Shown here: piece after piece, positions 13,965 to 15,527 of the stretch
Layout of the letters: every line of letters starts with the position of its first letter
Numbering within the stretch: the first letter of the stretch is position 1
Assembly: GCA_046542385.1 (NCBI GenBank)
Contig: JBKHBM010000003.1
Span: 59,896 to 83,895, forward strand
Direction of reading: 5' to 3'
Source of the DNA: Desulfatibacillaceae bacterium
Lineage (GTDB): Bacteria; Desulfobacterota; Desulfobacteria; Desulfobacterales; Desulfatibacillaceae
DNA: 24,000 nucleotides
Notes under the pieces: model-generated
What the model was told of the DNA's origin: nothing
What the model saw: only the letters and a program-made list of their open reading frames with translations
Database searches by the model: none
Made by a program: the position numbers and the translations under genes

Positions 13965-15182
13965 GTGGCGAATGATGGCGAAGACGCGAAAACCCGAAAG
14001 ACGGCGGAGGACACCGGCCCGTCCGTGGAGTTCATGGACCTGCGTGCGGAACCCCGTCCGGCGTCGGCCGGTTGCGACTGTTCCGCGCAAGCCGCCTGCT
14101 GCGGGCCACCGGCAGGGCCTCCCGCGGCCGAGGACGAGCTGCCCGGATATGAGAAATGCCATTTCGTCCTGGATTTCCTGGACACCGCCGCTGGGCGTGT
14201 TCCCGTGGTGGAAACACGGCTCACGGGCCGGGACCGTCTGACGGCGTTTGCCGCGCGCGTGGGTCTGTGGCGCAACGAGCACAGGGTGGCGCCCGGCCTG
14301 TACGCGGCGGGATCGCCCGGAGCGGAGTCCGGTGTGTTTGTCACGGCCAGCTACAAGCTGAGCTTCGCCGCGCTGCGCAGGGCGCTTTCCGGCAGGGACG
14401 CGTGGATACTGGTGGTGGACACGCGCGGCATCAACGTGTGGTGCGCGGCCGGCAAGGGGACCTTTTCCACGGAGGAGGTGGCGAGGCAGATTGACGGCAC
14501 GGGCCTTGCGCAACTGGTGTCCCACCGGCGGCTGGTCCTGCCACAGCTGTCGGCCACCGGGGTGAGTGCGCACAGGTTGAAGAAGATGACCGGATTTACC
14601 GTGAAATGGGGACCGGTACGGGCAAGGGACCTTCCCGCGTACCTGGATCGGGGCATGGAAGCCACCACGGACATGCGCCGTGTGGGGTTCAACCTTTACG
14701 ACCGGCTGGTGCTGGTGCCGGTGGAGCTCTCCCAGGTACTCAAGCCCTCCGTGCTGGTGCTGCTGGCCATGTTCGCGATTTCCGGCATCGGTCCCGGCGT
14801 CTACTCGTTCGGCGCCATGTGGAGCCGGGGACTGATGATGGCGCTGGCCTACGTGCTGGGCGTGCTTGCCGGCACCGTGGGCACCGCGGCTCTGCTGCCG
14901 GTGATCCCGGGCAGGGCGCTTTCCGCCAAGGGCGCGCTCATGGGCGTGTTCGCCGGCGCCGTCGCCGGCCTGGTGTACATGTCCCGCGCCGGCGCTCTCG
15001 AGTTGTTGTCCATGGTGCTTGTGGCCACGGCAATCAGTTCCTATCTTGGAATGAACTACACGGGAACGACGCCCTACACCTCGCCGAGCGGGGTGGAAAA
15101 GGAGATGCGCCGCGCCATGCCGGCACAGGCCGGAGGCGCATTGCTGGCGCTGATGCTGTGGGTGGCGGCTCCGTTCATGTGA
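13965..15182 (+). CDS. hgcA: HgcA, corrinoid-binding membrane protein of the mercury methylation system
   Basis: GTG 13965 with AGGAG at 13953-13957; an alternative ATG lies at 14034. The cap-helix motif GINVWCAAGKGTF has its Cys codon at 14442-14444. The C-terminal half has ~5 TM helices. The domain order is CFeSP/CdhD-like corrinoid domain followed by a TM domain. Confidence 0.9.
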   Translation: MANDGEDAKTRKTAEDTGPSVEFMDLRAEPRPASAGCDCSAQAACCGPPAGPPAAEDELPGYEKCHFVLDFLDTAAGRVPVVETRLTGRDRLTAFAARVGLWRNEHRVAPGLYAAGSPGAESGVFVTASYKLSFAALRRALSGRDAWILVVDTRGINVWCAAGKGTFSTEEVARQIDGTGLAQLVSHRRLVLPQLSATGVSAHRLKKMTGFTVKWGPVRARDLPAYLDRGMEATTDMRRVGFNLYDRLVLVPVELSQVLKPSVLVLLAMFAISGIGPGVYSFGAMWSRGLMMALAYVLGVLAGTVGTAALLPVIPGRALSAKGALMGVFAGAVAGLVYMSRAGALELLSMVLVATAISSYLGMNYTGTTPYTSPSGVEKEMRRAMPAQAGGALLALMLWVAAPFM

Positions 15183-15239
15183 TGGAAGCCGGTCGGCAAC
15201 GGCCGTTGGCGCGATATGCGCGACAGGGAGTGAAGTGCA

Positions 15240-15527
15240 ATGAAGAACATGAGGTATCTGCCCGACGTGACCACCCTGAGGGTTCGGGCCGGGAACTGCT
15301 CGGGTTGCGGCTCCTGCGCCGAGGTCTGTCCCCACGGCGTCCTGGAGGTGGAGAACCGGCGGGTGTACGTGGTGGACCGCGACGGGTGCATGGAGTGCGG
15401 CGCGTGCGCCACCAATTGCCCCACCGGGGCCATAGAGATCACGCCCGGGGTCGGGTGCGCGGCGTATATCCTTTCGGGATGGATTCACGGGAAGGAGAAT
15501 GCTTCCTGCGGTCCGGGCTGCTGCTGA
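15240..15527 (+). CDS. hgcB: HgcB, 2[4Fe-4S] ferredoxin partner of HgcA
   Basis: 95 aa. Two CX2CX2CX3CP motifs (CSGCGSCAEVCP, CMECGACATNCP), an additional Cys73 (GVGCAAY) and a C-terminal GPGCC (Cys94-Cys95). Starts 57 nt downstream of hgcA. Confidence 0.9.
   Translation: MKNMRYLPDVTTLRVRAGNCSGCGSCAEVCPHGVLEVENRRVYVVDRDGCMECGACATNCPTGAIEITPGVGCAAYILSGWIHGKENASCGPGCC

Follow-up and report, generated by a model that had tools for sequence, protein, structure and literature searches.

A very probable arsR-hgcA-hgcB mercury-methylation locus in a Desulfatibacillaceae bacterium

The stretch of DNA studied here (the window) comprises 24,000 nucleotides of contig JBKHBM010000003.1, positions 59,896 to 83,895, from a Desulfatibacillaceae bacterium (Desulfobacterales). 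Three adjacent genes in this window, arsR, hgcA and hgcB, are best explained, with high confidence, as a mercury-methylation locus that encodes an ArsR-type regulator, a corrinoid protein and a ferredoxin. The identification itself is already known, because an identical protein is already correctly named at NCBI. Among the 5.8 billion proteins searched, a 382-residue entry (P0001) that is 100% identical to HgcA carries the label 'mercury methylation corrinoid protein HgcA'. Over 18.5 kb the window also matches, with 100% identity, contig CAZNQU010000011.1 of a Desulfatibacillaceae metagenome-assembled genome (assembly GCA_964575315.1).

A first-pass annotation of the same DNA had recognized hgcA and hgcB, and its coordinates for the two open reading frames (ORFs) agree exactly with the ORF list and the raw sequence. 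It described the pair as hidden behind look-alike proteins, which is overstated. Its warning that an automatic pipeline would mislabel the genes is outdated for NCBI, given the entry above. The warning does apply to labels of the Pfam or JGI style, such as 'CdhD', 'hypothetical' and 'Fer4'.

No genetic marker for the microbial production of methylmercury is known other than hgcAB, and every carrier that is correctly identified therefore sharpens the map of organisms able to make this neurotoxin. With the present locus a Desulfatibacillaceae lineage joins this map, and its HgcA is less than 60% identical to its nearest relatives. Further value, which is modest, lies in its ArsR2-regulated type, in the Cys-Cys form of its HgcA and in a conserved palindrome at the arsR promoter.

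Identification of HgcA and HgcB

Family-specific profiles recognize both proteins over nearly their full length. HgcA matches the NCBIfam equivalog NF040863 with 416.9 bits (cutoff 275, E = 5e-125, profile positions 1-324 of 325), and HgcB matches NF040864 with 115.6 bits (cutoff 99, E = 7e-34, profile positions 1-93 of 93). The two assignments of the first-pass annotation are thus borne out by models that are specific to each protein. Related sequences were drawn from 80 species-representative loci, which were found by means of an alignment of 23 HgcA homologues (A1). The founding pair from Pseudodesulfovibrio mercurii ND132 was compared by means of published residue numbers, an N-terminal fragment quoted by Haft, and one ND132-type locus (L028) that serves as a proxy. 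This proxy encodes a 338-residue HgcA with Cys93 and a 95-residue HgcB, and has an ArsR gene upstream; its HgcA is 53% identical to that of the window over 335 residues.

The hgcA frame runs from a GTG start to a TGA stop and contains GINVWCAAGKGTF. Its product has three parts: a short N-terminal extension that is rich in Cys and has the motif CCGPP, a cobalamin-binding domain like that of the corrinoid iron-sulphur protein (CFeSP), and a membrane anchor of five hydrophobic segments. The cap helix of the middle domain carries NVWCAAGK, as the first-pass annotation had reported, and all eight residues are invariant in A1. Its Cys160 (codon TGC, 14442-14444) is equivalent to Cys93 of the proxy HgcA, and aligns to a Thr in the segment ...VLTAWAAG... 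of CFeSP structure 2H9A.

The membrane anchor is defined by Kyte-Doolittle hydropathy, which yields the same five segments for HgcA alone and for the average over the 23 homologues. These agree with the five-helix membrane domain that has been published for HgcA (PMC7305189). A membrane domain of about this size had been placed at residues ~230-405 in the first-pass annotation. The five segments are found, and the domain begins nearer residue 250 (~255-405). Between segments 4 and 5 lies a conserved loop, MNYTGTTPYTSPSGVEKEMR, which is near-invariant in A1 in the form MN(F/Y)TG(S/T)TP(F/Y)TSPSGVEKE.

Gene calls disagree on where hgcA begins. One call uses GTG 13965, which gives 405 residues, whereas NCBI uses ATG 14034, which gives 382. 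The GTG start is favoured here because AGGAG lies 7 nt upstream of it, compared with a GGAG just 3 nt upstream of the ATG codon; this choice is a reading of likely ribosome binding sites. The CC motif is included with either start.

Most HgcA proteins carry the motif PCUGP near their N terminus, with selenocysteine (Sec) from an in-frame UGA that lies upstream of where the start used to be annotated; others have CC in its place (Haft, 10.1101/2022.07.06.499078). The window encodes the CC form, Cys45-Cys46. Because this extension specifies Cys-Cys rather than Cys-Sec (UGA), all 405 residues read as one open frame. The pair is invariant in the 23 aligned homologues, and its distance to the PGY motif (13 residues) is identical to that between CU and PGY in ND132. 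When the upstream frame is read in the 80 related loci, 48 have CC, 17 have C-TGA and 12 have neither, while 3 are not assessable. The Cys-Cys form is used here even though an AhpD-like gene described below suggests that the organism can decode Sec.

The hgcB gene starts with ATG and begins 57 nt past the hgcA stop. Its 95 codons include two CX2CX2CX3CP clusters (Cys20/23/26/30-Pro31 and Cys50/53/56/60-Pro61), Cys73 and a terminal Cys94-Cys95, all of which the first-pass annotation had listed. It made no mention of a further residue, Cys90. It had also stated that this numbering coincides with that of ND132 HgcB. The statement is right, since Cook et al. (PMC7305189) give the same positions apart from Cys90 (20, 23, 26, 60 / 50, 53, 56, 30 / 73 / 94, 95). 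Mutagenesis of the ND132 proteins shows that HgcA Cys93 and HgcB Cys73 are required, and that one or the other of the C-terminal HgcB cysteines is needed as well (PMC7305189). The window has Cys at all of these mutationally important positions, in the cap helix of HgcA as well as at residues 73, 94 and 95 of HgcB.

Gene order and cluster residues are strongly conserved among relatives. In 78 of the 80 related loci hgcB lies 3' of hgcA, and the remaining 2 stop at a contig edge. Of 79 relatives, 78-79 retain the eight cluster cysteines of HgcB. More variation is seen at column 73, with Cys in 65 of these relatives and TGA in 13 (loci L026, L029, L030, L037, L038, L045, L048, L051-L053, L055, L063 and L071), which have a conserved tail ending in CC. 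In nine of the 13 TGA73 loci the adjoining HgcA has no N-terminal CC or CU motif. This co-occurrence may be due to one clade of the Desulfobacula/Desulfotignum type and not to functional compensation.

Several points weigh against reading the locus as a working methylation system. After the identical entry, the next best matches to HgcA are just 58-59% identical, and for that reason the case for activity is made from family membership and conserved residues, which suggest that this organism methylates Hg. The host is known only as a metagenome-assembled genome. The HgcA helix count comes from hydropathy only. Co-transcription of the three genes is deduced from their short gaps (27 nt between arsR and hgcA, 57 nt between hgcA and hgcB), and operator binding from conservation. 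Lastly, expression of hgcAB is a poor predictor of methylation rate (Gionfriddo et al., 10.1101/2022.10.17.512643).

The base composition of the locus matches its surroundings. GC and GC3 of arsR, hgcA and hgcB are in line with those of the flanking genes, and because of this match there is no compositional sign of recent acquisition. Recent horizontal transfer of arsR-hgcAB is rejected on these grounds.

Table 1. Positions of the arsR-hgcA-hgcB genes, motifs and control elements in the window
Feature	Position	Strand	Evidence or remark
Promoter-like site, TTGACA, 18 nt spacer, TATCGT	13578..13607	+	10/12 consensus positions; putative function
Candidate ArsR operator, inverted repeat TTATCGTA/TACGATAA	13601..13620	.	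Core ATCGT-N6-ACGAT 13603-13618
arsR, ArsR2-type ArsR/SmtB regulator, 100 aa, GTG start	13635..13937	+	Pfam HTH_20, HTH_5; NCBIfam HTH_metalloreg; source-contig gene call
hgcA, corrinoid methyltransferase, 405 aa	13965..15182	+	NF040863 HgcA_corrinoid, residues 79-404; alternative start ATG 14034, 382 aa
Cys45-Cys46 (CCGPP), Cys form of PCUGP selenocysteine motif	14097..14102	+	Context AACCGPP, A1
Cap-helix motif N157-V-W-C160-A-A-G-K164	14433..14456	+	Invariant in A1; Cys160 predicted as lower axial ligand of cobalt
C-terminal membrane domain, five hydrophobic segments	14727..15179	+	Residues ~255-281, 288-314, 320-343, 342-363, 385-405
hgcB, 2x[4Fe-4S] ferredoxin, 95 aa, Cys73, C-terminal Cys94-Cys95	15240..15527	+	NF040864 HgcB_ferredoxin

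The ArsR regulator and its candidate operator

A third gene, arsR, lies directly upstream of hgcA and ends 27 nt before its start. It was absent from the first-pass annotation. The encoded protein matches HTH_metalloreg with 73 bits (cutoff 55). Its five cysteines, Cys16, C37xC39 and C76xC78, correspond to Cys26, C47xC49 and C86xC88 of ND132 ArsR2, with a constant offset of 10. About 30 of the 80 related loci have an ArsR homologue at this position on the same strand. In ND132 the regulator and hgcAB are transcribed together, and the regulator reacts to arsenic and S-adenosylhomocysteine (SAH), not to Hg (Gionfriddo et al., 10.1101/2022.10.17.512643). By analogy with ND132, from which alone these properties are known, the ArsR of the window may repress hgcAB and may answer to the same two signals.

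The promoter-like site upstream of arsR is overlapped by a perfect inverted repeat, beside which stands a further ACGAT (13621-13625). A TTGACA-like -35 box occurs at a similar distance upstream of arsR in most related loci. The core of the repeat is strikingly restricted in its distribution. A search for ATCGT-N(4-10)-ACGAT finds a single match in the window, and of 22 matches in 612 kb of related loci, 21 fall within 160 nt upstream of arsR. Viewed from the gene, the palindrome is present at 21 of the 26 assessable arsR loci, and the other 5 carry variants with one mismatch.

Text searches and the preprint on ArsR2 (10.1101/2022.10.17.512643), which was consulted in its preprint version, yield no mention of a promoter, operator or palindrome. 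Because the palindrome recurs upstream of arsR and no mention of it was found in the literature, ATCGT-N6-ACGAT is proposed as a candidate ArsR2 operator on the basis of phylogenetic footprinting. The broader suggestion is tentative and on balance doubtful: that this 16-bp palindrome over the -10 box, kept across many Desulfobacterota genera, is an unreported operator of ArsR2-type hgcAB regulators generally. If it is true, genome scans for ATCGT-N6-ACGAT could define the hgcAB regulon and would bear on what HgcAB is for.

The arsR promoter is separated from an MCP gene (10997-12415, - strand) by ~1.2 kb (12416-13577). The only gene call in this interval is a 64-residue ORF (13187-13381) that matches no family, and the interval has no Rfam match.

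Proposed mechanism

The ND132 enzyme provides the biochemical model for this locus. Purified HgcAB of ND132 is associated with membranes and carries cobalamin and two [4Fe-4S] clusters, and HgcB reduces the cobalamin to Co(I). The methyl donor is S-adenosylmethionine (SAM), not methyl-tetrahydrofolate (methyl-THF). The conserved Cys of HgcA is the lower axial ligand of methyl-Co(III), from which the methyl group moves to thiol-bound Hg(II) (all PMC11588087). The first-pass annotation had implied a methyl link to the Wood-Ljungdahl pathway, which does not hold now that the donor is known (PMC11588087).

By extension from ND132, the HgcB of the window would pass low-potential electrons to HgcA and reduce its cobalamin to Co(I). 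SAM would then methylate Co(I) to give a Cys-ligated methyl-Co(III), and the methyl group would move to thiol-bound Hg(II) to form methylmercury. The cysteines of HgcB, including its flexible Cys-Cys tail, may pass on Hg(II) or CH3Hg+. Both Cys-on cobalamin binding and methyl transfer from SAM to Hg(II) are known for the ND132 enzyme only, and are presumed here by analogy. At the level of expression, the ArsR2-type repressor probably binds ATCGT-N6-ACGAT over its own -10 region. Under its control, arsR, hgcA and hgcB would form a single transcript that responds to arsenic or SAH and not to mercury.

Alternative explanations

One alternative accepts that HgcAB is genuine and holds that Hg methylation is a side reaction. 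The selected role would be another, for example dehalogenation of CCl4 and trihalomethanes or the handling of arsenic. This would explain why control of the locus falls to an ArsR-type sensor that does not respond to Hg. According to a 2026 preprint, CCl4 is dechlorinated by ND132, by PCA and by heterologously expressed HgcAB, with a Vmax roughly 1000-fold above that of Hg methylation (10.64898/2026.04.26.720869). In ND132, ArsR2 answers to As and SAH and not to Hg, and a strain deleted for hgcAB is more sensitive to As(V) (10.1101/2022.10.17.512643). A regulator of the same ArsR2 type is present in the window. However, the halomethane study is unreviewed, and the 24 kb window contains no ars or dehalogenation genes. 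A side reaction is a serious possibility, if a somewhat less likely one than a selected role in mercury methylation, and it concerns physiological purpose only. It is compatible with the identification of the genes as hgcAB.

It is very improbable that the locus encodes instead a non-methylating paralogue of HgcA or a protein of the HgcAB-like fusion family, both of which resemble HgcA but are not established as methylators. The model for that family (NF043039) does give a partial match of 209 bits. This falls below its cutoff of 285 bits, however, and is half the score of the true HgcA model. Moreover, hgcA and hgcB are not fused into one gene, and none of the mutationally important residues is missing, whether in the cap helix (Cys160) or in HgcB (Cys73 and the CC terminus).

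The weakest alternative takes the pair for a Wood-Ljungdahl corrinoid protein of the ordinary kind (AcsC, AcsD or CdhD) and a generic ferredoxin, neither of them related to mercury. General databases return just such names: Pfam reports only CdhD for HgcA (45 bits, residues 107-225) and only generic Fer4 families for HgcB, and the sole sequence relatives of HgcA in the PDB are the CFeSP large subunits 2H9A, 4C1N and 4DJD (E = 6e-12 to 1e-6, residues 92-226). This alternative has almost no probability left and is regarded as refuted, for the CdhD match covers only the last ~120 profile positions (267-385 of 387), NF003195, which models the gamma subunit of acetyl-CoA decarbonylase/synthase, has a cutoff of 306 bits and gives 63, the Thr of CFeSP is replaced by Cys in the cap helix, a membrane domain that CFeSP lacks follows the corrinoid domain, and no acs or cdh genes lie near hgcAB in the 24 kb window. 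The first-pass annotation had drawn the same distinction from the cap-helix motif, and it is upheld by this failed model, by the HgcA and HgcB equivalogs that pass, and by the cap-helix Cys together with the membrane domain. An hgcAB locus accordingly is retained as the identification.

Neighbouring genes

The ORF that follows hgcB on the + strand starts with ATG at 15647, has GGAGG 6 nt upstream, is interrupted by an in-frame TGA (15776-15778) and ends at 15916. When the TGA is read through, it encodes an 89-residue CMD/AhpD-like protein with the motif C-Q-P-U (CxxU, in the context GCQP-U-TEH). The Pfam CMD family matches across the TGA with 39.9 bits, and there are partial matches to selenoprotein AhpD domains. 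Two metagenome contigs (L081 and L082) carry an independent homologue in which a TGA occupies this column and the sequence on either side of it is conserved. Their homologue also has a hairpin similar to one at 15787-15809 in the window, with one compensatory pair. One homologue from JGI has Trp in the TGA column.

Taken together, the ORF is probably an AhpD-like selenoprotein gene in which Sec would be inserted at the TGA. The putative selenocysteine insertion sequence (SECIS) region does not fold better than shuffled sequences (z = -0.08), and support comes from conservation instead. An Rfam scan of the whole window finds no family at the gathering score, and hence no cobalamin riboswitch and no known SECIS model. 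Gene callers shorten the AhpD-like gene to 43 residues, or replace it with a 99-residue call that overlaps hgcB.

Converging on the AhpD-like gene is a PduO-type cob(I)alamin adenosyltransferase gene (15928-16491, - strand), and the two stops are 11 nt apart. A conserved functional link of these two genes with hgcAB is rejected, because in none of the 80 related loci are they found beside hgcAB. A weaker proposal is that the CxxU AhpD-like selenoprotein might serve as a lineage-specific partner in redox chemistry or Hg handling.

Other genes in the window have more distant locations. A ribonucleotide reductase with a TSCPD domain (19592-21763, + strand) has an architecture that suggests class II, which is B12-dependent, and the organism is evidently a cobalamin user. 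Like the adenosyltransferase gene, the reductase gene does not regularly accompany hgcAB in related loci. On the - strand, 5256-9425 encodes a 1389-residue protein with two BcrAD_BadFG ATPase domains and DUF2229, which resembles an activator of 2-hydroxyacyl-CoA dehydratase. Long + strand ORFs at 5049-9521 match no family and are probably spurious in this sequence of 64.5% GC. A 721-residue trypsin-family protease (816-2981, + strand) carries CarboxypepD_reg, cadherin-like, Big_9 and proprotein-convertase P domains, and is probably secreted or exposed on the surface.

Comparison with known systems

The window displays all of the defining features of HgcA, HgcB and an ArsR2-type regulator that can be judged from sequence, and does not display those of CFeSP/CdhD or of the fusion family. 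The closest known system is the HgcA/HgcB pair of P. mercurii ND132 (DND132_1056/1057), which is the founding and biochemically characterized one (PMC11588087). The two loci share their gene order, a CFeSP-like corrinoid domain, the NVWCAAGK cap helix, a membrane domain of five segments, a 95-residue HgcB with cysteines at 20/23/26/30, 50/53/56/60, 73, 94 and 95, and an ArsR2-type gene directly upstream. They differ in that HgcA of the window is ~53% identical to ND132-type HgcA (with the proxy locus standing in for ND132), has Cys-Cys in its extension where ND132 has Cys-Sec (UGA), and is accompanied by an HgcB with the extra Cys90. The hosts also differ, with Desulfobacterales here and Desulfovibrionales there.

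The regulator resembles ND132 ArsR2 (DND132_1054) in its ArsR/SmtB helix-turn-helix, in five cysteines of the same spacing that include a four-Cys site (CxC...CxC), and in its position, which is immediately upstream and on the same strand. Over ~80 residues it shares 65% identity with the homologue at the proxy locus. The conserved palindrome found here has no mention in the ArsR2 preprint.

More remote comparisons separate HgcA from its look-alikes. Like the AcsC large subunit of CFeSP (2H9A, 4C1N and 4DJD), HgcA has a cobalamin-binding fold, and its residues 92-226 align to AcsC 301-438. Unlike AcsC, it has neither the N-terminal [4Fe-4S] part nor the TIM barrel, it carries Cys instead of Thr in the cap helix and an added membrane domain, and, to judge from the ND132 enzyme, it would take its methyl group from SAM rather than from methyl-THF. 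The HgcAB-like fusion proteins (NF043039) combine the same corrinoid, membrane and ferredoxin modules. In the window, by contrast, these modules are divided between two genes, and the match of 209 bits stays short of the cutoff of 285 that marks the fusion family.

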